Source of the DNA: Escherichia coli
Lineage (GTDB): Bacteria > Pseudomonadota > Gammaproteobacteria > Enterobacterales > Enterobacteriaceae
Assembly: GCF_030013205.1 (NCBI RefSeq)
Contig: NZ_CP122648.1
Length of the DNA stretch: 64,000 nt
Reading direction: 5' to 3' (one strand)
Shown here: positions 35,953 to 64,000 of the stretch, one piece after another
How positions within the stretch are numbered: the first letter of the stretch is position 1
How the letters are laid out: the number at the start of each line of letters is the position of its first letter
Program-made: the position numbers and the translations under genes
The notes under the pieces: model-generated
Told to the model about the DNA's origin: nothing
The model's database searches: none
Seen by the model: only the letters and a program-made list of their open reading frames with translations

Positions 35953-36408
35953 GTGTTCCCCGCGCCAGCGGGGATAAACCGCATAATCCCGGCTGGAAAC
36001 ATTGCGGGGGTAAGTGTTCCCCGCGCCAGCGGGGATAAACCGCGACCGATCCCGCTGTTGCAACTTTTATTGAGGTGTTCCCCGCGCCAGCGGGGATAAA
36101 CCGGTGATGAGGAAAAGCTAATAGAATGGCGACGCGTGTTCCCCGCGCCAGCGGGGATAAACCGGTCCACGGTTCGACGCCTACCGCCGCAGCTATGTGT
36201 TCCCCGCGCCAGCGGGGATAAACCGTTGTCGGGCTTGTTCGGCGCGGGTTGTTAACTGTGTTCCCCGCGCCAGCGGGGATAAACCGCCAGTCGAAGATCT
36301 GGACGCGTGGGGAAAAGCGTGTTCCCCGCGTCAGCGGGGATAAACCGGACGCACTGGATGCGATGATGGATATCACTTAGAATTCCCCGCCCCTGCGGTA
36401 GAACTCCC
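35953..36408 (+). CRISPR. type I-E CRISPR array, 7 repeats plus a degenerate terminal repeat, 7 spacers
   Basis: 29-bp repeats GTGTTCCCCGCGCCAGCGGGGATAAACCG at 35953, 36014, 36075, 36136, 36197, 36258, 36319 (the last with gcgTcag); 32-bp spacers between them; degenerate final unit gaattccccgcccctgcggtagaactccc at 36380. Confidence 0.95.
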
Positions 36409-51416: not shown

Positions 51417-51708
51417 TGGAGCACCTCAAAAACACCATCATACACTAAATCAGTAAGTTGGCAGCATCACCGTCGGCTTCAGGGCAAAAAGAGAGTTGAT
51501 GTAAGCGGGATTGTAATAATTGATAGTCACCATGAATATCACCAACGGCCCATATATGGCGATAGTGATGGGCATTGATTTTTTGATAGCGTGTAGATGG
51601 CATGGTTTTACCCTGTAAAATAAGCTTTCCTATTATACAGGGTATTTTTATTTGATTCGTCAGTTGTCGTTAATATTCCCGATAGCAAAAGACTATCGGG
51701 AATTGTTA

Positions 51709-54270
51709 TTACACCAGACTCTTCAAGCGATAAATCCATTCCAGCGCCTGACGCGGGGTGAGTGAATCCGGGTCCAGGTTTTCCAGTGCCTCGACCGCAG
51801 GCGACGTTTCTTCTGGCACTGACAGCAAAGACATTTGCGTACCATCCACTTGCGTAGCGGCGGCGTTCGGCGAAATGCTTTCCAGCTCACGCAGTTTTTG
51901 CCGTGCGCGCTTAATAACCTCTTTTGGCACGCCCGCCAGAGCAGCAACCGCCAGGCCGTAGCTTTTGCTCGCCGCGCCATCCTGCACGCTGTGCATAAAG
52001 GCAATGGTGTCGCCGTGCTCCAGTGCATCAAGATGCACGTTGGCGACGCCTTCCATTTTCTCCGGTAACTGGGTTAGCTCGAAATAGTGGGTGGCAAACA
52101 ACGTCAACGCTTTAATCTTATTCGCCAGATTTTCCGCGCACGCCCACGCCAGCGACAGACCATCGTAAGTGGAGGTTCCGCGCCCAATCTCATCCATCAG
52201 CACCAGACTGTACTCGGTGGCGTTATGTAAAATATTGGCGGTTTCGGTCATCTCCACCATAAAGGTTGAACGCCCGGATGCCAGATCATCCGCTGCCCCT
52301 ACGCGGGTAAAGATGCGATCGATAGGTCCAATCTCGACTTTTTGTGCCGGTACATAGCTGCCGATGTAGGCCATCAGCGCAATCAGTGCGGTCTGGCGCA
52401 TATAGGTACTTTTACCGCCCATATTCGGACCGGTAATGATCAACATGCGACGCTGCGGCGACAGGTTCAGCGGGTTGGCGATAAATGGCTCGTTCAGTAC
52501 CTGTTCAACCACCGGATGGCGGCCTTCGGTGATGCGAATACCCGGTTTATCAATGAAGGTCGGGCAGGTGTAGTTCAGGGTATAGGCCCGCTCCGCCAGG
52601 TTAACCAGCACATCAAGTTCTGCCAGTGCGCTTGCGCTCTGTTGCAACGCTTCCAGATGCGGCAACAGCAGGTCGAACAGCTCTTCATAAAGCTGTTTTT
52701 CCAGTGCCAGTGCTTTGCCTTTTGAGGTGAGAACTTTATCTTCGTACTCTTTTAGCTCTGGAATAATGTAGCGTTCGGCGTTTTTCAGCGTCTGGCGGCG
52801 CATGTAGTTAATCGGTGCCAGATGGCTTTGTCCACGGCTGATCTGAATGTAATAACCATGCACCGCGTTAAATCCGACTTTCAGCGTGTCCAGGCCGGTA
52901 CGTTCACGCTCGCGGACTTCCAGACGCTCCAGATAATCGGTCGCGCCGTCAGCCAGCGCGCGCCACTCATCCAGCTCTTCGTTATAGCCCGATGCGATAA
53001 CACCACCGTCGCGCACCAGTACCGGCGGTGTGTCGATAATGGCCCGCTCCAGCAGATCGCGCAGTTCGGCAAACTCACCCATCTTCTCACGCAGCGCCTG
53101 TACCGGTGCACTATTGACAGTTTCTAACTGCGCGCGCAGCTCCGGCAGTTGCTGGAAAGCGTGACGCATACGGGCCAGATCGCGTGGGCGAGCAGTTCGT
53201 AAAGCCAGACGCGCCAGAATACGTTCCAGGTCGCCGACCTGACGCAGTACCGGCTGCAGCTCGGCGGTGAAATCCTGCAATGCGCCAATAGTTTGCTGGC
53301 GCTCAAGCAAGACGCGGGTATCGCGCACTGGCATATGCAGCCAGCGTTTCAGCATACGGCTGCCCATCGGCGTGACGGTGCAGTCGAGCACAGAAGCCAG
53401 CGTATTTTCCGCACCACCCGCCAGGTTCTGGGTGATTTCCAGATTACGACGCGTCGCGGCATCCATAATGATGCTGTCCTGCTCACGTTCCATGGTGATG
53501 GAACGAATATGCGGCAGAGTCGTACGTTGGGTATCTTTCGCATACTGCAACAGACAACCGGCAGCACAAAGTCCGCGCGGCGCGTTCTCGACGCCAAAAC
53601 CGACCAGATCGCGGGTCCCAAATTGCAGATTCAACTGCTGGCGCGCGGTGTCGATTTCAAACTCCCACAGCGGGCGACGGCGCAGGCCGCGACGGCCTTC
53701 AATTAACGACATTTCAGCAAAATCTTCTGCATACAGCAGTTCCGCAGGATTAGTGCGTTGCAGTTCTGCCGCCATCGTTTCCCGGTCAGCCGGTTCGCTC
53801 AGGCGAAAACGACCGGAACTGATATCCAGCGTCGCGTAGCCGAAACCTTTACTGTCCTGCCAGATAGCCGCCAGCAGGTTATCCTGACGCTCCTGCAACA
53901 GCGCTTCATCGCTGATGGTGCCCGGCGTAACGATACGCACAACTTTGCGCTCAACCGGACCTTTGCTGGTCGCTGGATCGCCAATTTGTTCGCAGATGGC
54001 AACGGACTCGCCCTGATTCACCAGTTTGGCGAGGTAGTTTTCCACCGCATGGTAGGGGATCCCCGCCATTGGGATCGGCTCTCCCGCCGAAGCACCGCGT
54101 TTGGTCAGTGAAATATCCAGCAGTTGCGACGCGCGTTTTGCGTCGTCATAAAACAGTTCATAAAAATCACCCATCCGGTAAAACAGCAGGATCTCGGGAT
54201 GCTGGGCTTTCAGCTTGAGATATTGCTGCATCATGGGCGTATGGGCATCGAAATTTTCTATTGCACTCAT
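51709..54270 (-). CDS. mutS: DNA mismatch repair protein MutS
   Basis: 853-aa ORF with Walker [10 protein letters not shown] and canonical MutS domains. Confidence 0.95.
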
Positions 54271-54516
54271 GGGGTTATGTCCGGTTCCCTGATATTAAAT
54301 GGGGTGTGATGGTTTTTATTTTCGTTGTAATCACATAAGGCGCACATGATACCGGAGTTAATCATTTCAGGGGAAGAAGCGAACGGCGAGTTCTTGATGG
54401 TGATTCCGGGAAAGATGCTGTTTTGCAGCTTTTGCGTGATGCTTATGAAGCAGGTACGCAAAATTGCGTCGGTTGAATAAACCTCCTCCTTCAGAGCCAT
54501 AGTCCCCTTTCAAATT

Positions 54517-54539
54517 AAGTTGTAATATAAATACACCTT
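54517..54539 (+). promoter_or_regulatory. possible NsrR-type operator upstream of ygbA
   Basis: aagttgtaatataaatacacctt resembles the 11-1-11 NsrR palindrome (AAGATGCATTT-N-AAATGCATCTT); centred about 30 bp upstream of the ygbA ATG. Confidence 0.35.
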
Positions 54540-54556
54540 AAGAGTATGGAGGCAGC

Positions 54557-54901
54557 ATGTCCGGCAAGCGTATCTCTCGTGAAAAACTGACGATTAAAAA
54601 AATGATCGATCTTTATCAAGCGAAATGCCCGCAGGCGTCAGCGGAGCCGGAGCATTACGACGCGCTGTTTGCCTACGCGCAAAAGCGGCTGGATAAATGT
54701 GTGTTCGGCGAAGAGAAACCAGCCTGTAAGCAGTGTCCGGTGCACTGTTACCAGCCTGCAAAGCGTGAAGAGATGAAACAGATTATGCGTTGGGCCGGGC
54801 CGAGAATGCTGTGGCGTCATCCGATCTTAACCGTGCGTCATCTCATCGATGACAAGCGTCCGGTGCCGGAGTTGCCAGAAAAATATCGTCCAAAGAAATA
54901 A
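54557..54901 (+). CDS. ygbA: nitrosative-stress-inducible protein YgbA
   Basis: 114-aa ORF with Cys-rich motif CKQCPVHCYQ; divergent from mutS. Confidence 0.8.
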   Translation: MSGKRISREKLTIKKMIDLYQAKCPQASAEPEHYDALFAYAQKRLDKCVFGEEKPACKQCPVHCYQPAKREEMKQIMRWAGPRMLWRHPILTVRHLIDDKRPVPELPEKYRPKK

Positions 54902-54905
54902 ATCT

Positions 54906-54930
54906 GCCGGAGAGCCATACTCTCCGGCAA
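54906..54930. terminator. hairpin between convergent ygbA and the Mop gene
   Basis: gccggagag-ccatact-ctctccggc. Confidence 0.5.
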
Positions 54931-54939
54931 ATAAGGCGT

Positions 54940-55368
54940 TTACGCTTTGGTGGCAATCAGGATGGCTGATGCTTTGATCAATGCAATAACGCGCGAGCCA
55001 GTGGTGAGTTTCATTTCATCCTGACTTTCATTTGTTACCACTGCCACAATTTCAAAACCCGCATCCGTTTTGATATGGACAGTGGCGTTCACTGCGCCTT
55101 CGGTGATTGTCGACACGCTGCCAGCAAACTGGTTGCGAGCAGAGAATTTCAGTCCACAGTCTTCCGTTGCCAGCGTTACCCACGGGGCTTTAATCAGGGC
55201 AATCGCTTCTTTCCCTTTCGCCAGACCCAGCGCTTGCTGGCTGCTGTGAGTCACAATTGCCACCAGCTTTGCACCACCTGCCAGCGTCAGTTCTACTTCA
55301 TCATTCACAGCGCCCATTGCTACTGCGCTAACTGTTCCGGTTAATTGATTTCTTGCTGAAACTGCCAT
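54940..55368 (-). CDS. tandem Mop/TOBE-domain molybdate-binding protein (molbindin)
   Basis: 142 aa from the ATG at 55368 with RBS aaaggagg 5 nt upstream; two about 70-aa repeats each starting SARNQ and ending IKA; 45 bp downstream of the fhlA stop. Confidence 0.7.
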   Translation of the reverse strand: MAVSARNQLTGTVSAVAMGAVNDEVELTLAGGAKLVAIVTHSSQQALGLAKGKEAIALIKAPWVTLATEDCGLKFSARNQFAGSVSTITEGAVNATVHIKTDAGFEIVAVVTNESQDEMKLTTGSRVIALIKASAILIATKA

Positions 55369-55412
55369 ACTGCCTCCTTTCATTGAATGTTGATCGAGTA
55401 TAACCACATCTG

Positions 55413-57491
55413 TTAAATCAATGCCGATTTATCAATTCCAAGCCGCTTCATCCGTGACAGCAGGGTCGTGCGTTTCAGCCCCAGACGTTGCGCAGCGCCT
55501 TTAGGCCCGGCAACCACGCCGTTGGTTTCTTTCAGCACGCGAACAATCAACTGATATTCATCTTCGCCCTCCTGGGCGACAACCGTTGCGGCGGGCGGCG
55601 TTTCTGGTTCCGGTAAAACAATATCTGGCAGTGACAGCTGCAGCACGTTGCCGCGTGTTAGCAATACCGCGCGCTCAATGACGTTTTCCAGTTCGCGTAC
55701 GTTACCCGGCCACTCCATGTTGCTCAGGATGCGCAGCGTCTCGGCAGGAATGCTGTCGATATTGCGCCCCAGACGACGGGCAATTTTGAAGGTAAAGGCT
55801 TTCGCCAGCAGCGGAATATCTTCCGGACGCTCGCGTAGTGGCGGCAGGTGAATCGGGAATACGTTCAGGCGGTAATAGAGATCGCTACGGAACTCACGGT
55901 CGGCGACCATTTTTTTCAGATCGCGGTTAGTTGCGGCGATTAGACGCACGTCCGTCTGAATGATTTTGTTGCTGCCGAGACGTTCAAACTCCTGTTCCTG
56001 TAATACACGCAGCAACTTCGGCTGTAACTCCAGTGGCATATCGCCCACTTCGTCGAGGAACAGGGAGCTTTTATCCGCCAGTTCAAAACGACCAATGCGC
56101 TGGGCGCTGGCACCGGTAAAAGCCCCACGCTCATGACCAAACAGATCGCTCTCCAGCAATCCGGCAGGCATCGCCGCGCAGTTCATTTTGACCATGCGGC
56201 GATTATTACGCCCACTGAGATTATGGATCGCGCGGGCAATCAGCTCTTTACCTGTACCAGTTTCACCGAGAATCAGCACGGTACTGTCGCTTTGCGCCAC
56301 CATTTCAACTTGTTTAAGTACGCTGTACATGGCTTCGCTGCGGCCAATAATCTCGCCAAATTCACTATCAACATTGTTGAGCTGCTCGGTCAGGGCGAGG
56401 TTTTCATCAACCAGCCGTTCTTTCAGACGATGGATTTCCTGATAGGCGAGGGCGTTATCGACAGCGATTGCCACACGTTCGGCAATCTGGCGCAGTAAAT
56501 TCAGATTGGTAGTGGTAAACACTTTCTCTTCGCATTGCGCCAGTTTCAGCACGCCCAGCATGGTGTCGCCAGACATCAGCGGTAACAGGCACAAGGTTTG
56601 AATCTGGTTGCCCCAGGTGTCGAACAACATACGTTCATAGGGGGCTAAATCGTCCCGCTCGTGGAGATTAATCAACAGCATCTCTTTACTTTTGAAGACG
56701 CGTTCGGTGAGGGTTCCGGCTTCATCGACTTCGCTCTGTTCGTGGGCGGGATGCTGTTTATCAAGATAGTGAGTGGAGTAGATGTTGAGTTTGTTTTTAC
56801 GGTGGCTGCGTAAGACGATGCTGATATCGTCAATGTCGAAGTAGTAATGGATTTCTTTGGCGACTTCGCTGACCAGTTCGTCCATATCCAGGCGGGAAAG
56901 CACCGCGTTGGTAATGGCAACCAGGATGCGGAAGTTATCGCGTTCCCGGCATAACAACTCATAGTCGACATTGTTAACGACGCGACTCTGGATTTGTTCG
57001 GTGACGACAGAAACGATCTGCGTAAATGTTTGCAGACGATTGAACTCTTTTTCGCTCCAGGGGCGATCGTCATAACGAATAAATTCACAGCCACCAAAAA
57101 TATGCCCTTCCGCCGCCAGTGGCATCAGGCAATAGTGACCAAATTTTGGGTATAGCCCACCTGCGGCCAGCTGCGGCCAGGTTTCACAAAATTCTTCGTA
57201 ACTGCAATGCAGCGTATCAGGGCGCGACAAAATGCTGCGTACCGGACCGTGTGCCAGAACAGTTTCGTCTTCATATTTAATGGGGGTGTCTTTTTCACGC
57301 GATGCGTAATAAGACGCACGTTGAGTCTGCGCTTGCCACAACACAATAGCCGCGTTGTCGGCGAGCGCAGAACGCTTTACCAGTTGCGAAAGAGCCTCAC
57401 ACAGCGAGGCCAGATCGGGCTGCTGCAATAGTGTCCGAGTGATGTCGAACAACCCTTGCTGTCCGAGATCACTCATCGGTGTATATGACAT
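55413..57491 (-). CDS. fhlA: formate hydrogenlyase transcriptional activator (sigma-54 enhancer-binding protein)
   Basis: 692 aa from the internal ATG (MSYTPMSDLGQQG); GAF domains, AAA+ sigma-54 interaction module (GETGTGKE, GAFTGA) and C-terminal HTH. Confidence 0.9.
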   Translation of the reverse strand: MSYTPMSDLGQQGLFDITRTLLQQPDLASLCEALSQLVKRSALADNAAIVLWQAQTQRASYYASREKDTPIKYEDETVLAHGPVRSILSRPDTLHCSYEEFCETWPQLAAGGLYPKFGHYCLMPLAAEGHIFGGCEFIRYDDRPWSEKEFNRLQTFTQIVSVVTEQIQSRVVNNVDYELLCRERDNFRILVAITNAVLSRLDMDELVSEVAKEIHYYFDIDDISIVLRSHRKNKLNIYSTHYLDKQHPAHEQSEVDEAGTLTERVFKSKEMLLINLHERDDLAPYERMLFDTWGNQIQTLCLLPLMSGDTMLGVLKLAQCEEKVFTTTNLNLLRQIAERVAIAVDNALAYQEIHRLKERLVDENLALTEQLNNVDSEFGEIIGRSEAMYSVLKQVEMVAQSDSTVLILGETGTGKELIARAIHNLSGRNNRRMVKMNCAAMPAGLLESDLFGHERGAFTGASAQRIGRFELADKSSLFLDEVGDMPLELQPKLLRVLQEQEFERLGSNKIIQTDVRLIAATNRDLKKMVADREFRSDLYYRLNVFPIHLPPLRERPEDIPLLAKAFTFKIARRLGRNIDSIPAETLRILSNMEWPGNVRELENVIERAVLLTRGNVLQLSLPDIVLPEPETPPAATVVAQEGEDEYQLIVRVLKETNGVVAGPKGAAQRLGLKRTTLLSRMKRLGIDKSALI

Positions 57492-57564
57492 TTTGTTCTT
57501 CCAGGAAAGCACCGCAAAGCGGTGCAAAAGGTCATTGACTAACTATAGGAGATTTAGAATTTTA

Positions 57565-58575
57565 TTAGCATATACGCGGAAGCGGTTCGGCGTGTGGTAA
57601 ATCGAGGGTTCGTTTCACGCCATACAGACCGGCAAGACGAACACCTTTACGTTCCACCACTTCACCAATCAGCGCCGCGTCTTTCCCCAGTGGATGGGAA
57701 TGTAACGCTGCCAGCACTTGCTCTGCCGCGTTGCGTTCAACGGCGATCACCAGTTTGCCTTCGTTGGCAAAGTTAAGGGCGTCCAGTCCCAGCAGTTCGC
57801 AAACGCCGCGCACAGCAGGTTTAACCGGCAGTGCCGCTTCTGAAATTTCAATACCGCAACCGCAGGCTGCCGCGAACTCATGAACTACCGCGTTCACACC
57901 ACCACGGGTGGCATCACGCAGCGCTTTCACGCCGGGAATGTCACGCAGCGTCTGAATAAGCGGCGTTAGTACCGCACAGTCGCTGACCAGTTCGCCATCC
58001 AGCCCCAGCTGCTCACGCAGGTTAAGGATAGTCGCCCCGTGATCGCCGAGCGTGCCGCTCACCAGCAATACATCGCCTGCGGTTAGCGTCTGTGCGCCCC
58101 AGTGAATATTCGCCGGAATTGCGCCCATGCCAGCGGTGTTGATAAACAGTTTATCTGCCGCGCCGCGCTGCACCACTTTAGTATCGCCAGTAACGATGGC
58201 AATGCCTGCCGCGCGGGCGGTTTCTGCCATGCTGGTCACTACGGCTTTCAGTGTCTCCATCGGCAATCCTTCTTCGAGGATAAAGCCACAGGAGAGATAG
58301 CGCGGAATAGCGCCACTGACCGCAACGTCATTCGCGGTGCCGCAAATCGCCAGCTTGCCGATGTTACCGCCAGGAAAGAACAGCGGGTCAATGACGTAAC
58401 TGTCGGTGGAGAACGCCAGACGGTCGCCTTCCGCTACCAGCTGCGCCAGATCAAGACGGGCCTGATCTTCCTGCTCTGCCAACCACGGGTTGGCAAAGGC
58501 TTCCATAAACAGGCTGTTGATTAATTGCTGCATCGCCTGGCCGCCGCTGCCGTGGGCGAGTTGGATATTATTCAC
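57565..58575 (-). CDS. hypE: hydrogenase maturation protein HypE
   Basis: 336-aa ORF, AIR-synthase-like fold, C-terminal PRIC. Confidence 0.9.
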   Translation of the reverse strand: MNNIQLAHGSGGQAMQQLINSLFMEAFANPWLAEQEDQARLDLAQLVAEGDRLAFSTDSYVIDPLFFPGGNIGKLAICGTANDVAVSGAIPRYLSCGFILEEGLPMETLKAVVTSMAETARAAGIAIVTGDTKVVQRGAADKLFINTAGMGAIPANIHWGAQTLTAGDVLLVSGTLGDHGATILNLREQLGLDGELVSDCAVLTPLIQTLRDIPGVKALRDATRGGVNAVVHEFAAACGCGIEISEAALPVKPAVRGVCELLGLDALNFANEGKLVIAVERNAAEQVLAALHSHPLGKDAALIGEVVERKGVRLAGLYGVKRTLDLPHAEPLPRIC

Positions 58576-59693
58576 GCTTCACTCTCCTGCTGACGATACT
58601 GATACCACGCGGCGCACGCTCCTTCGGAGGAGACCATCAGTGCACCAAACGCGGTTTGAGGATTACAGGTGTTACCAAACAGCGGGCATTGATGCGGCTT
58701 ACATTTGCCCGTTAATACTTCGCCACAACGCGCACGCGGGTCATCGCAGACCTGCTGCGGTGCCGGGCGGAAATGCGCTTCGGCATCGAATCGTTGATAA
58801 TCCGGCGTCAGGTGCACACCAGAAGATTCAATCACGCCTAAGCCGCGCCATTCGCTGTCGCCGTTGACACAGAACACATCGGCAATCGCCTGTTGCGCCA
58901 GCAGGTTACCGGCATCCGGCACCACCCGACGATACTGATTCTCCACCTTGCTGTGGGCCGCTATTTTCTGCTCCACCAGCATGACCACGCCTTGCAGTAG
59001 ATCAAGCGGTTCGAAACCAGCCACCACCAGCGGACGATGAAAATCGCTGGCGATAAAATTATAGGCATCAGTGCCGATCACCATACTGACGTGGCCGGGC
59101 GCGAGGAACGCGTCGATACCGTTATCCGGCTGTTCCAGCAAACTGCGCAGTGTTGGGATGAGCGTAATGTGCTGGCAGAAGAAGTAAAAATTCTGCACAT
59201 CGCGGGCTTTTGCCTGTTGCAGAGTGATGGCCGTCGTCGGCATGGTGGTTTCAAAACCTAAGCCGAAGAATACCACTTTACGGGTTGGATTCTCCTGCGC
59301 CAGTTTCAACGCATCCATTGGCGAGTAAACGATGCGCACATCGGCACCGCGTGCTTTTGCCTGCAACAGCGATCCCTGTTTCCCCGGCACGCGCATGGCG
59401 TCGCCAAAGGTACAGAAGATGACTTCCGGATGGCTGGCAATCTCCACGCAGGTGTCGATTCTACCCATCGGCAGTACACACACCGGGCAACCGGGACCGT
59501 GGATAAACTCAACGTTTTCCGGCAGCAACTGATCGAGGCCGAATTTAAAAATGGCGTGGGTATGACCGCCACACACTTCCATAATCCGCAGAGGGCGTTC
59601 GGCGGTGTAAGAGAGATATGAAGCACGTTCGCGCAGATGCTCAATTAACTGCATCACCTGTTCCGGCGCGCGATATTCATCAACAAAACGCAT
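58572..59693 (-). CDS. hypD: hydrogenase maturation protein HypD
   Basis: 373-aa ORF with CGxH and GPGCPVC motifs. Confidence 0.9.
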   Translation of the reverse strand: MRFVDEYRAPEQVMQLIEHLRERASYLSYTAERPLRIMEVCGGHTHAIFKFGLDQLLPENVEFIHGPGCPVCVLPMGRIDTCVEIASHPEVIFCTFGDAMRVPGKQGSLLQAKARGADVRIVYSPMDALKLAQENPTRKVVFFGLGFETTMPTTAITLQQAKARDVQNFYFFCQHITLIPTLRSLLEQPDNGIDAFLAPGHVSMVIGTDAYNFIASDFHRPLVVAGFEPLDLLQGVVMLVEQKIAAHSKVENQYRRVVPDAGNLLAQQAIADVFCVNGDSEWRGLGVIESSGVHLTPDYQRFDAEAHFRPAPQQVCDDPRARCGEVLTGKCKPHQCPLFGNTCNPQTAFGALMVSSEGACAAWYQYRQQESEA

Positions 59694-59965
59694 TATTTTT
59701 CCTCGCCATACAACAGCGCGCCGACATCTGGCTCAACGTCAAACATGTTTTGTAAGGCGTCGAGAGTGTCGCGTGCTTCGGCTTCATTAATTACGCTCAT
59801 GGCAAAGCCAACGTGAACCAGTACCCACTGGCCTACGCGTGGCTGACCGTTTTCATCGCAGCTGCCGACTAACGTTAAATCGACATCGCGCTGAATGCCG
59901 CAGACGTCGACTTTCGCCTGGTTGCCGTCAATGGTGCGGATCTGGCCGGGAACGCCTATGCACAT
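59693..59965 (-). CDS. hypC: hydrogenase maturation chaperone HypC
   Basis: 90 aa from [10 protein letters not shown] (N-terminal Cys2). Confidence 0.85.
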
Positions 59966-60828
59966 CGCTGTGTCTCCAGCCAGTTCAGCCACTGGTCCAT
60001 CCCTTCGCCGCTGGTGGCGGAAATAAGGATGATTTCAATTTCTGGATTGACTTCGCGGGCGCAGGCGATGCACTTCTCAACGTCAAAGTTGAGATACGGC
60101 AGCAGGTCAACTTTGTTGAGCAGCATCAGTGAGGCGGCGGCAAACATATGCGGATATTTCAGCGGTTTGTCTTCACCTTCGGTAACGGAAAGCACCGCCA
60201 CTTTGTGTTTTTCACCGAGATCGAAGCTGGCCGGGCACACGAGGTTGCCGACGTTTTCGATAAACAGAATACCGTTATCGTCCAGTGGCAGGCGCGGTGC
60301 GGCGTCGGCAATCATCTGTGCGTCAAGATGGCAGCCTTTACCGGTATTCACCTGAATCGCTGGTGTGCCGGTAGCGCGAATGCGTGCGGCATCGTTCACG
60401 GTTTGCTGATCGCCTTCAATAACCGCGCACGGAACGCTGTCTTTCAGGCGCATTAAGGTTTCCGTCAGCAGGGTGGTTTTACCGGAACCAGGGCTGGAAA
60501 CCAGGTTGAGCACCAGTTGCTTGCGGGCAGCAAAGCGCGCGCGGTTGCGTTCAGCCAGACGGTTATTTTTGTCCAGCACGTCAATTTCGACTTCCAGCAT
60601 CCGACGCTGGCTCATGCCCGGCGCGTGAGTACCCGCTTCGCCATGACCGTAATGCAGGTCGCCTTCTTCAGTCTGGCTGGGGGTAAATTCAGGCGCTTTA
60701 ATGCCGGTGATTTTCATCTTCGGGCGTGCCGCCGGGGCAAATGGCGCGCTACGAAACGCGGAATGAGGGTTATGTTCATCACCCTCGATATACAGGTTGC
60801 CTTCACCGCAACCGCATGTTGTACACAT
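59956..60828 (-). CDS. hypB: hydrogenase nickel incorporation GTPase HypB
   Basis: 290-aa ORF: N-terminal CxxCGC metal site, GTPase P-loop GSPGSGKTT. Confidence 0.9.
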
Positions 60829-60831
60829 CGC

Positions 60832-61182
60832 TCACTCCTGGTCTATTTCTATCCGCCGAATCTGTAAACCGTCGTCTGCCACAATCTGTAGCATGTCACC
60901 ATGACACTGTGGACAGCGGCGGACGCGCTGGGTCAGTAGCGTCACATACTGTTGGCATGTTTCACACCAGCATTCGGCCTCTTGTTCTTCGAGGTGCAGT
61001 TTACAACCTTCCGCCACGCTGCCGCGGCAAACCAGATCAAAACAAAAGGCAAGAGAGCGGGTTTCGACACAAGAAAATGCGCCAATTTTGAGCCAGACCC
61101 CAGTTACGCGTTTTGCGCCGTGTTTTGCGGCCTGCTGTTCGATCAATTCCAGTGCCCGTTGGCAGAGGGTTATTTCGTGCAT
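60832..61182 (-). CDS. hypA: hydrogenase nickel insertion protein HypA
   Basis: 116 aa from MHEITLCQ; zinc motif CxxC ... CPQC. Confidence 0.9.
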   Translation of the reverse strand: MHEITLCQRALELIEQQAAKHGAKRVTGVWLKIGAFSCVETRSLAFCFDLVCRGSVAEGCKLHLEEQEAECWCETCQQYVTLLTQRVRRCPQCHGDMLQIVADDGLQIRRIEIDQE

Positions 61183-61212
61183 ATCGCCTCCCATTAACTA
61201 TTGCCAGCTACA

Positions 61213-61228
61213 AGCAATAATTGTGCCA
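61213..61228 (-). promoter_or_regulatory. sigma-54 -24/-12 promoter element for the hyp operon
   Basis: reverse complement reads TGGCACaattaTTGCT, about 30 bp upstream of the hypA start. Confidence 0.7.
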
Positions 61229-61341
61229 GTGTTGATTATCCCTGCAGTGAATAATGTCGATGATGTCGAAATGACACGTCGACACGGCGACGAAATTCAT
61301 CTTTAGCTTAAAAATCGCCTTAATAACAATGAATTAAAAGT

Positions 61342-61357
61342 TGGCACAGAAAATGCT
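61342..61357 (+). promoter_or_regulatory. sigma-54 -24/-12 promoter element for the hyc operon
   Basis: TGGCACagaaaaTGCT with GG and GC at canonical spacing, 37 bp upstream of the hycA ATG. Confidence 0.65.
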
Positions 61358-61393
61358 TAAAGCTGGCGTCTCTGTTAAACGGGTAACCTGACA

Positions 61394-61855
61394 ATGACTA
61401 TTTGGGAAATAAGCGAGAAAGCCGATTACATCGCACAGCGGCATCGTCGCCTACAGGACCAGTGGCACATCTACTGCAATTCGCTGGTTCAGGGGATCAC
61501 GTTATCGAAAGCGCGCCTGCATCACGCCATGAGCTGCGCGCCGGACAAAGAACTCTGTTTCGTCCTTTTTGAACATTTTCGTATTTACGTCACCCTGGCG
61601 GATGGCTTTAACAGCCACACCATCGAGTATTACGTCGAAACAAAAGATGGTGAAGACAAACAGCGGATTGCGCAGGCGCAACTGAGCATTGACGGCATGA
61701 TTGATGGCAAGGTCAACATCCGCGATCGCGAACAGGTTCTGGAACACTATCTCGAAAAAATCGCGGGCGTTTACGACAGCTTATACACCGCTATTGAAAA
61801 CAATGTGCCGGTGAATTTAAGCCAACTGGTAAAGGGACAAAGCCCGGCAGCATGA
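61394..61855 (+). CDS. hycA: formate hydrogenlyase regulatory protein HycA
   Basis: 153-aa ORF, first gene of the hyc operon, divergent from hypA. Confidence 0.85.
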   Translation: MTIWEISEKADYIAQRHRRLQDQWHIYCNSLVQGITLSKARLHHAMSCAPDKELCFVLFEHFRIYVTLADGFNSHTIEYYVETKDGEDKQRIAQAQLSIDGMIDGKVNIRDREQVLEHYLEKIAGVYDSLYTAIENNVPVNLSQLVKGQSPAA

Positions 61856-61979
61856 GCTGAGGCTTTGCCCGTTTTGCAGGCGTTACGCCTGTTTGGGGAT
61901 GGGCGTGTCGATGAGTGTCGAAAATGACATTTCATCGGCATGTTTTCGTCAAAAATGACAATCACCTGAGGAATGCCTG

Positions 61980-62591
61980 GTGAATCGTTTTGTAATTGCT
62001 GACTCCACGCTCTGTATCGGCTGCCACACCTGTGAGGCCGCCTGTTCAGAGACGCATCGCCAGCACGGCCTGCAATCAATGCCGCGCCTGCGAGTGATGC
62101 TCAATGAAAAAGAATCTGCGCCGCAGCTCTGTCACCACTGTGAAGATGCGCCCTGTGCGGTGGTTTGCCCGGTTAACGCCATCACCCGCGTTGATGGGGC
62201 CGTGCAGTTGAATGAAAGTCTGTGCGTAAGCTGCAAACTGTGCGGCATCGCCTGCCCGTTTGGCGCAATTGAATTTTCCGGCAGCCGTCCGCTGGATATT
62301 CCGGCAAACGCCAATACCCCGAAAGCGCCACCGGCACCGCCTGCTCCGGCGCGTGTCAGCACATTGCTTGACTGGGTGCCAGGTATTCGCGCGATTGCCG
62401 TCAAATGTGACCTTTGTAGTTTTGATGAACAAGGTCCGGCCTGCGTGCGGATGTGCCCGACTAAAGCCCTGCATCTGGTGGATAACACCGATATCGCCCG
62501 CGTTAGCAAACGTAAGCGTGAGCTGACCTTTAACACGGACTTTGGCGATCTCACCTTGTTTCAGCAGGCTCAAAGTGGAGAGGCTAAATGA
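61980..62591 (+). CDS. hycB: formate hydrogenlyase 4Fe-4S ferredoxin subunit HycB
   Basis: 203-aa ORF with four CxxCxxCxxxCP clusters. Confidence 0.9.
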   Translation: MNRFVIADSTLCIGCHTCEAACSETHRQHGLQSMPRLRVMLNEKESAPQLCHHCEDAPCAVVCPVNAITRVDGAVQLNESLCVSCKLCGIACPFGAIEFSGSRPLDIPANANTPKAPPAPPAPARVSTLLDWVPGIRAIAVKCDLCSFDEQGPACVRMCPTKALHLVDNTDIARVSKRKRELTFNTDFGDLTLFQQAQSGEAK

Positions 62592-64000
62592 GCGCAATTT
62601 CCCTGATCAATAGCGGCGTGGCGTGGTTTGTCGCCGCCGCTGTTCTGGCATTTCTCTTTTCTTTTCAAAAGGCGCTAAGCGGCTGGATAGCCGGAATTGG
62701 CGGCGCGGTGGGTAGTCTGTATACGGCAGCCGCGGGCTTCACTGTACTGACTGGCGCGGTTGGCGTGAGCGGTGCGCTGTCGCTGGTAAGCTACGATGTG
62801 CAAATCTCTCCGCTTAACGCGATTTGGCTGATTACGCTCGGCCTGTGCGGTCTGTTTGTCAGCCTCTACAACATTGACTGGCATCGCCACGCGCAGGTGA
62901 AATGCAACGGCTTGCAGATCAATATGTTGATGGCTGCCGCCGTCTGTGCCGTCATCGCCAGCAACCTCGGCATGTTCGTGGTAATGGCTGAAGTCATGGC
63001 CTTGTGTGCGGTGTTCCTTACCAGCAACAGCAAAGAGGGCAAACTGTGGTTTGCGCTGGGGCGTCTTGGCACTCTGCTGCTGGCGATTGCTTGCTGGCTG
63101 CTGTGGCAGCGTTACGGCACGCTGGATCTGCGCCTGCTGGATATGCGTATGCAACAGCTGCCGCTCGGTTCCGATATCTGGCTGCTCGGTGTGATTGGCT
63201 TTGGCCTGCTGGCCGGGATTATTCCGCTGCACGGCTGGGTGCCGCAGGCACATGCTAACGCCTCTGCGCCAGCTGCCGCGTTGTTTTCTACGGTGGTGAT
63301 GAAAATCGGCCTGCTGGGCATTTTAACCCTGTCGCTGCTGGGCGGTAATGCACCGCTGTGGTGGGGGATCGCGCTGCTGGTGCTCGGTATGATCACCGCG
63401 TTCGTCGGCGGTCTGTATGCGCTGATGGAGCACAACATCCAGCGCCTGCTGGCTTACCACACCCTGGAAAATATCGGCATTATCCTGCTGGGGCTGGGCG
63501 CTGGCGTAACGGGTATCGCGCTCGAACAACCGGCGCTGATTGCCCTTGGTCTGGTCGGTGGTCTGTACCATCTGCTTAACCATAGCCTGTTCAAAAGCGT
63601 ACTGTTCCTCGGGGCGGGGAGCGTCTGGTTCCGTACCGGTCATCGCGATATCGAAAAACTCGGTGGTATAGGCAAGAAAATGCCGGTTATCTCCATCGCC
63701 ATGTTGGTCGGGTTGATGGCAATGGCTGCGCTGCCGCCGCTGAACGGGTTTGCCGGGGAATGGGTTATCTATCAATCCTTCTTCAAACTGAGCAATAGTG
63801 GCGCGTTTGTTGCCCGTCTGCTGGGGCCGCTGCTCGCAGTGGGTCTGGCAATTACCGGTGCGCTGGCGGTGATGTGTATGGCGAAAGTCTATGGTGTCAC
63901 GTTCCTCGGCGCGCCGCGTACCAAAGAAGCCGAAAACGCCACCTGTGCGCCGCTCCTGATGAGCGTAAGCGTAGTGGCACTGGCGATTTGCTGCGTAATT
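62588..64000 (+). CDS. hycC: formate hydrogenlyase membrane subunit HycC (NuoL/ND5-like), 3' end outside the window
   Basis: ATG at 62588 overlaps the hycB stop (ATGA); open hydrophobic frame runs to the window end; not in the ORF track because no stop is reached. Confidence 0.85.
   Translation, partial: MSAISLINSGVAWFVAAAVLAFLFSFQKALSGWIAGIGGAVGSLYTAAAGFTVLTGAVGVSGALSLVSYDVQISPLNAIWLITLGLCGLFVSLYNIDWHRHAQVKCNGLQINMLMAAAVCAVIASNLGMFVVMAEVMALCAVFLTSNSKEGKLWFALGRLGTLLLAIACWLLWQRYGTLDLRLLDMRMQQLPLGSDIWLLGVIGFGLLAGIIPLHGWVPQAHANASAPAAALFSTVVMKIGLLGILTLSLLGGNAPLWWGIALLVLGMITAFVGGLYALMEHNIQRLLAYHTLENIGIILLGLGAGVTGIALEQPALIALGLVGGLYHLLNHSLFKSVLFLGAGSVWFRTGHRDIEKLGGIGKKMPVISIAMLVGLMAMAALPPLNGFAGEWVIYQSFFKLSNSGAFVARLLGPLLAVGLAITGALAVMCMAKVYGVTFLGAPRTKEAENATCAPLLMSVSVVALAICCVI

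Follow-up and report, generated by a model that had tools for sequence, protein, structure and literature searches.

A common natural allele of the probable NsrR operator upstream of ygbA in Escherichia coli

The imperfect inverted repeat that precedes ygbA in the window (the whole stretch of 64,000 nucleotides of Escherichia coli chromosomal DNA that was analysed) can with high confidence be regarded as the NsrR operator controlling this gene. The feature itself is already known: it is the ygbA NsrR site of K-12, encountered here as a common natural allele. The value of the result therefore lies mainly in a correct annotation, the ygbA site being a textbook member of the NsrR regulon. To this we add a proposed second role of the left half as the predicted -10 hexamer, which may account for its degeneracy and gives a simple occlusion model, and a set of natural operator alleles that are open to experimental comparison. 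The features concerned are listed below (coordinates are those of the window).

51709-54270, minus strand: mutS, separated from ygbA by an intergenic region of 286 bp
54500-54505, plus strand: putative weak -35-like hexamer TAGTCC, 17 bp upstream of the -10 hexamer
54517-54539: very probable NsrR operator, an 11-1-11 imperfect inverted repeat AAGTTGTAATA-T-AAATACACCTT (whole site AAGTTGTAATATAAATACACCTT)
54517-54527: left half-site AAGTTGTAATA, the weaker one by half-site matrix score, embedded in the putative promoter
54523-54528, plus strand: predicted sigma-70 -10 hexamer TAATAT (site positions 7-12), proposed from conservation
54529-54539: right half-site AAATACACCTT (reverse complement AAGGTGTATTT), the stronger one by half-site matrix score, proximal to ygbA
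54535, plus strand: predicted transcription start, about 7 nt after the -10 hexamer, placed by geometry only
54548-54552, plus strand: Shine-Dalgarno sequence GGAGG of ygbA, read from the sequence and partly conserved across species
54557-54901, plus strand: ygbA coding sequence, 114 aa (Pfam PF11756 YgbA_NO, E 4e-41; annotated as ygbA in RefSeq)

A preliminary description of this DNA had placed an imperfect 11-1-11 palindrome just upstream of ygbA, and both parts of that statement are borne out: eight of the 11 pairs are symmetric by direct reading of the sequence, and 17 nt separate the 3' end of the site (54539) from the ATG (54557) of an ORF that Pfam confirms as YgbA. The likeness to NsrR sites exceeds what chance would give, whereas the palindromy by itself does not. 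A scan for 11-1-11 palindromes finds at least 8/11 symmetric pairs at 95 positions of the 64-kb window, and palindromy as a sole criterion was dropped given that these positions are equally or more symmetric. Compared with the strict consensus AAGATGCATTT-N-AAATGCATCTT, the site is identical at 16 of the 22 positions. The two halves contribute unequally: the right half-site, close to consensus, reaches 13.1 bits on the half-site matrix, the left one 6.7 bits (the training set has a median of 10.0). The left half loses score at positions 9 and 11, both within the predicted -10 hexamer, and would be partial owing to this double role.

Scoring was performed with two matrices, both of which rest partly on predicted rather than footprinted sites. 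Matrix 1 is symmetrised and derives from 25 published CFT073 11-1-11 NsrR sites (Table 4 of PMC5320621), with the ygbA row and one duplicate left out. Matrix 2, independent of the first, covers 19 bp and draws on the supplement of Rodionov et al. 2005 (PMC1274295), from which 29 enterobacterial sites (hmp, ytfE/dnrN, hcp, tehB and narK) were taken; it was built without the ygbA rows. The likeness to the NsrR consensus that had been described earlier is confirmed on both of these ygbA-free matrices, as the site is the top match of the window on each of them. On matrix 1 it obtains 20.0-20.7 bits (depending on the background), which ranks it 1 of 63,978 window positions and puts it in the middle of the range of the published sites (12.5-31.7 bits). 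When the whole window is shuffled with its dinucleotides preserved, one of 200 trials reaches this score anywhere; when the mutS-ygbA intergenic region is shuffled, none of 5000 does. On matrix 2 the site obtains 16.0 bits, a score that mononucleotide shuffles reach somewhere in the window in 7 of 200 cases and that falls short of the lowest value in the training set (17.7 bits); to call the match partial was thus fair.

The second-best match in the window is another NsrR-type 11-1-11 site, AAATGACATTTCATCGGCATGTT, located at 61922-61944 between hycA and hycB and 35 nt before the hycB start. Its score of 16.6 bits is circular, since this site is in the training set of matrix 1. The sequence is identical to the CFT073 'hycB' site with an NsrR ChIP-seq peak (PMC5320621), and a near-repeat AAAATGACA is found about 30 nt downstream of it.

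The cross-species set consists of one genome per species and comprises 80 ygbA loci of about 3.3 kb each, from Escherichia, Citrobacter, Salmonella, Enterobacter, Klebsiella, Kluyvera, Raoultella, Hafnia and other genera. For 79 of the 80 loci the best locus-wide matrix match precedes the ygbA ATG by 0-45 nt, and for all but one of these 79 by 12-22 nt. It reaches at least 15 bits in 70 of those loci, a level that is attained nowhere else in any locus (best scores elsewhere have a median of 6.6 bits). When 82 distinct upstream regions are aligned, the information jumps at 54517 and collapses after 54540, which delimits an island of 23 bp. Among the 82 sequences A1, A2, G6, T7, A8, A11, T12, T16, C18, A19, T22 and T23 are 95-100% conserved, followed by A15 (91%), G17 (84%) and C21 (80%). 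Several symmetric pairs are near invariant (the outer AA...TT, G6/C18 and A8/T16), and positions 4 and 20 rank among the least conserved of the site (0.63 and 0.42 bits).

Positions 7-12 of this island fit a -10 hexamer, which suggests that a promoter element lies within the operator. T7, A8, A11 and T12 are invariant in 81 promoters and positions 9-10 are variable, the variants being TATTAT (53 promoters), TAATAT (8), TAGAAT (7) and TAAAAT (7). The NsrR consensus, with T at position 11 and any base at position 12, leaves the conservation of these two positions unaccounted for. The sole other conserved patch upstream is a G at 54502, present in 91% of the sequences (majority TTG at 54500-54502); in 18 species the hexamer at 17-bp spacing reads CTGAAA. 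In the window, TAGTCC agrees with TTGACA at 3 of 6 positions, and the putative -10 and -35 hexamers together agree with consensus at 7 of 12, as might be expected of a weak promoter. A generic sigma-70 scan of 54200-55000 called no promoter; the -10 is missed because the -35 is too weak, and the promoter model therefore draws on conservation only. In the accessible literature we found neither a mapped ygbA start site nor a ygbA promoter reporter.

Given this overlap, it might be argued that the conserved block is the ygbA core promoter only, and that its likeness to NsrR sites is a coincidence in an AT-rich promoter. A -10 hexamer, and not NsrR, does account for T7, A8, A11 and T12, and bare 8/11 palindromes are common in the window. 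Nonetheless, A1 A2, A15 T16 G17 C18 A19 and C21 T22 T23 are conserved even though sigma-70 does not constrain them, and the conserved positions beyond the -10 mirror each other and fit the NsrR consensus. Moreover, matrices built without ygbA rank the site first in 79 of the 80 loci, and NsrR dependence is reported in the literature (PMC2884951, and the work cited in PMC5320621). We consider such a coincidence very improbable.

With an NsrR operator that overlaps a promoter, repression could be achieved by simple occlusion. NsrR belongs to the Rrf2 family. It is an Fe-S protein that acts as an NO-sensitive repressor (PMC5320621). A start near 54535 would give a leader of about 22 nt and would place the operator at about -18 to +5, such that bound NsrR would exclude RNA polymerase. 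Under this model a holo-NsrR dimer would bind the 11-1-11 inverted repeat and occlude the polymerase at the -10 hexamer and the start site. NO would then nitrosylate the Fe-S cluster, upon which NsrR would leave the DNA and ygbA would be transcribed. We infer this mechanism from the assigned -10 and -35 hexamers and start site, and expect the window allele to behave like that of K-12.

Published data on ygbA agree with the assignment. The supplement of Rodionov et al. 2005 gives a candidate NsrR site for E. coli ('ygbA -37 GATGtAaTaTAAATaCATC') and also one for ygbA of Erwinia carotovora (PMC1274295). As cited in PMC5320621, ygbA is NsrR-regulated in K-12 according to Bodenmiller & Spiro 2006 and NsrR-bound in K-12 ChIP-chip according to Partridge et al. 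2009. In a Salmonella nsrR mutant the ygbA mRNA is 31.8-fold up (PMC2884951). The proposal in the preliminary description that ygbA responds to nitric oxide is therefore supported by the NsrR regulation published for K-12 and Salmonella. When CFT073 is supplied with nitrate, ygbA is among the strongly upregulated genes, alongside ytfE and hcp, and the nitrate response of NsrR-regulon genes is attributed to NO from nitrate respiration (PMC5320621). NsrR ChIP-seq in the same strain left the ygbA promoter undetected, which its authors consider a probable false negative (PMC5320621); the CFT073 site carries T4 and C20, as does the window allele. The nsrR gene lies outside the window. Of 5426 complete E. 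coli genomes, 5425 carry it with no less than 95% identity, a species-level frequency that makes its presence in the window's own genome very likely.

The heptamer consensus of NarL/NarP is TACYYMT, and TACACCT at 54532-54538, within the right half-site, fits it at 6 of 7 positions. Together with the response of ygbA to nitrate-grown conditions (PMC5320621), this could point to binding of the palindrome by another nitrate, nitrite or anaerobic regulator, namely NarL/NarP, FNR or the Rrf2 paralogue IscR. However, the best intergenic matches to the NarL 7-2-7, FNR and IscR type-1 motifs are located off the site (with 3/14, 2/10 and 9/25 mismatches, respectively), and the region downstream of 54540 where a partner heptamer would be situated is unconserved and different in K-12. 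As the nitrate response of the regulon is moreover ascribed to NO (PMC5320621), we find binding by one of these regulators scarcely credible and retain NsrR as the protein that recognises the site. An FNR-like sequence, GTGATGCTTATGAA, occurs at 54436-54449, some 90 nt ahead of the predicted ygbA start. It matches at 8 of 10 specified positions, which is roughly chance level in 286 bp (by our own estimate about 0.1 expected).

Comparison with the K-12 promoter shows that the site of that strain, AAGATGTAATATAAATACATCTT, is identical to the window at 21 of 23 positions, with an equal distance of 17 nt to the ATG and TAATAT embedded in both. The window has T4 for A and C20 for T, and the number of symmetric pairs is reduced from 9/11 in K-12 to 8/11 because positions 4 and 20 are symmetric partners. 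The window allele scores 1.6 bits less than that of K-12 on matrix 1 (ChIP-seq-derived) and 5.5 bits less on the Rodionov matrix. The CFT073 site AAGTTGTAATATAAATGCACCTT (in ygbA orientation; Table 4 of PMC5320621) is identical to the window at 22 of 23 positions and has T4 and C20 in common with it; the one difference is A17 in the window, shared with K-12, for G in CFT073. Position 17 is G in 84% of the aligned species, and the CFT073-type allele is also found in strain uk_P46212.

A 34-bp query around the site was used to survey 5426 complete E. coli genomes, of which 5415 contain the site; three classes are given below.

Exact window allele: 1300 genomes (24%)
One-mismatch class: 1158 genomes (21%)
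K-12-like band: 2913 genomes (54%)

The two examples of the one-mismatch class that were examined are the CFT073-type G17 allele and a G6-to-T variant. Scores of the variants on matrix 1 are as follows.

A4/G17/T20 variant: 22.5 bits
K-12 allele: 21.6 bits
CFT073 allele: 20.9 bits
Window allele: 20.0 bits (below both other main E. coli alleles)

At all three polymorphic positions (4, 17 and 20) the window allele has the lower-scoring base. E. coli carries at least three common ygbA operator alleles, of which the window type could conceivably, though we doubt it, alter the repression strength or NO threshold in its lineage. In molecular terms, the operator would be genuine, but its T4/A17/C20 form would bind NsrR measurably weaker than the K-12 allele. 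The lowest matrix 1 score of the three, the 5.5 bits lost on the Rodionov matrix and the reduced symmetry all tend in this direction, as does the lack of a ygbA ChIP-seq peak in CFT073, which shares T4 and C20, against the positive ChIP-chip result cited for K-12. If true, carrier strains would show raised basal expression of ygbA or a reduced NO threshold, and the failure of ChIP-seq to detect ygbA in CFT073 would be explained as well. Nonetheless, positions 4 and 20 are among the least conserved across the 82 sequences, position 4 is most often T in the CFT073 site list (PMC5320621) and A17 is present in K-12 too. Furthermore, ygbA of CFT073 is still strongly nitrate/NO-induced (PMC5320621), and an allele found in 24% of the complete genomes is no rare lesion. 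A measurably weaker operator is consequently unlikely in our view, and we favour an NsrR operator that functions as in K-12.

The differences between K-12 and the window are distributed very unevenly over the region.

50 bp upstream of the site: 26%
Site: 2/23
17-bp leader: 29%
ygbA coding sequence: 2.9%
Distal intergenic region: 1.5%

The promoter flanks (54467-54516 and 54540-54556) are hypervariable within E. coli, and both haplotypes have counterparts in other Escherichia lineages: flanks are window-like in L003-L005 and L007 and K-12-like in L006. These sequence patterns suggest either an old polymorphism or recombination at a mutS-flanking spot. The segment 54200-54950 (751 bp) shows 100% identity with strain CFSAN018748 and occurs in 5419 of the 5426 complete E. 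coli genomes, and over 51472-64000 the identity to CFSAN018748 is 99.94%.

The gene order at the locus is mutS, ygbA (plus strand), a TOBE-domain gene (minus strand) and fhlA, followed by the hyp and hyc operons. The function of YgbA is described as unknown (PMC2884951), and is the more interesting question at this locus. Residues 48-63 (54698-54745) hold a cysteine cluster C-x8-C-x2-C-x3-C, CVFGEEKPACKQCPVHC, a pattern suggestive of metal or Fe-S binding. The match to K-12 stops at the ygbA stop, and the protein has 114 aa in the window against 117 aa in K-12. The TOBE-domain gene between ygbA and fhlA (54940-55407, minus strand; molybdate-binding type, PF03459, E 1e-34, two repeats) is absent from K-12; 1892 of 5426 complete E. 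coli genomes carry it. A terminator-like hairpin with a 14-bp stem (54902-54932) lies between the convergent ygbA and TOBE genes.

The mutS-ygbA intergenic region also contains a 44-aa ORF (54346-54480, plus strand), annotated in RefSeq as 'hypothetical protein', for which a Pfam search gave no match. It occurs only in Escherichia, its C-terminal half is eroded in E. albertii and E. whittamii, and a small terminator-like hairpin (54417-54429) is present inside it. The ORF may represent conserved mutS/ygbA regulatory DNA rather than a gene.

Elsewhere in the window, the sole perfect 11-1-11 palindrome, AACGCGTACCCTGGGTACGCGTT, is located at 6377-6399 in the pyrG-eno interval (placed by offset from an annotated relative). 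It is GC-rich and unrelated to NsrR, and might form a hairpin in RNA or act as a terminator. A type I-E CRISPR array at 35953-36347, downstream of the cas cluster, consists of seven copies of GTGTTCCCCGCGCCAGCGGGGATAAACCG at 61-bp spacing; Tandem Repeats Finder missed this array, which a separate repeat search found. Compared with the closest annotated relative, the array aligns poorly (78.7% identity), and the IS200 of that relative is absent from the window.

Among known systems, the ytfE operator AAGATGCATTTAAAATGCATCTT is a near-perfect reference palindrome for NsrR. It has the same 11-1-11 geometry as the ygbA site and is identical to it at 16 of the 22 specified positions. Both belong to one regulon, and ytfE is, like ygbA, an NO-induced gene of poorly understood function. 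The difference is one of symmetry: the ytfE operator is almost fully symmetric and scores 31.7 bits, against about 20 for the ygbA site of the window, where the left half is degenerate and doubles as the predicted -10 hexamer. IscR operators are likewise palindromic and are bound by a homologous dimeric Fe-S repressor of the same Rrf2 family as NsrR, but the IscR motif differs, the best type-1 match in the region having 9 mismatches out of 25.
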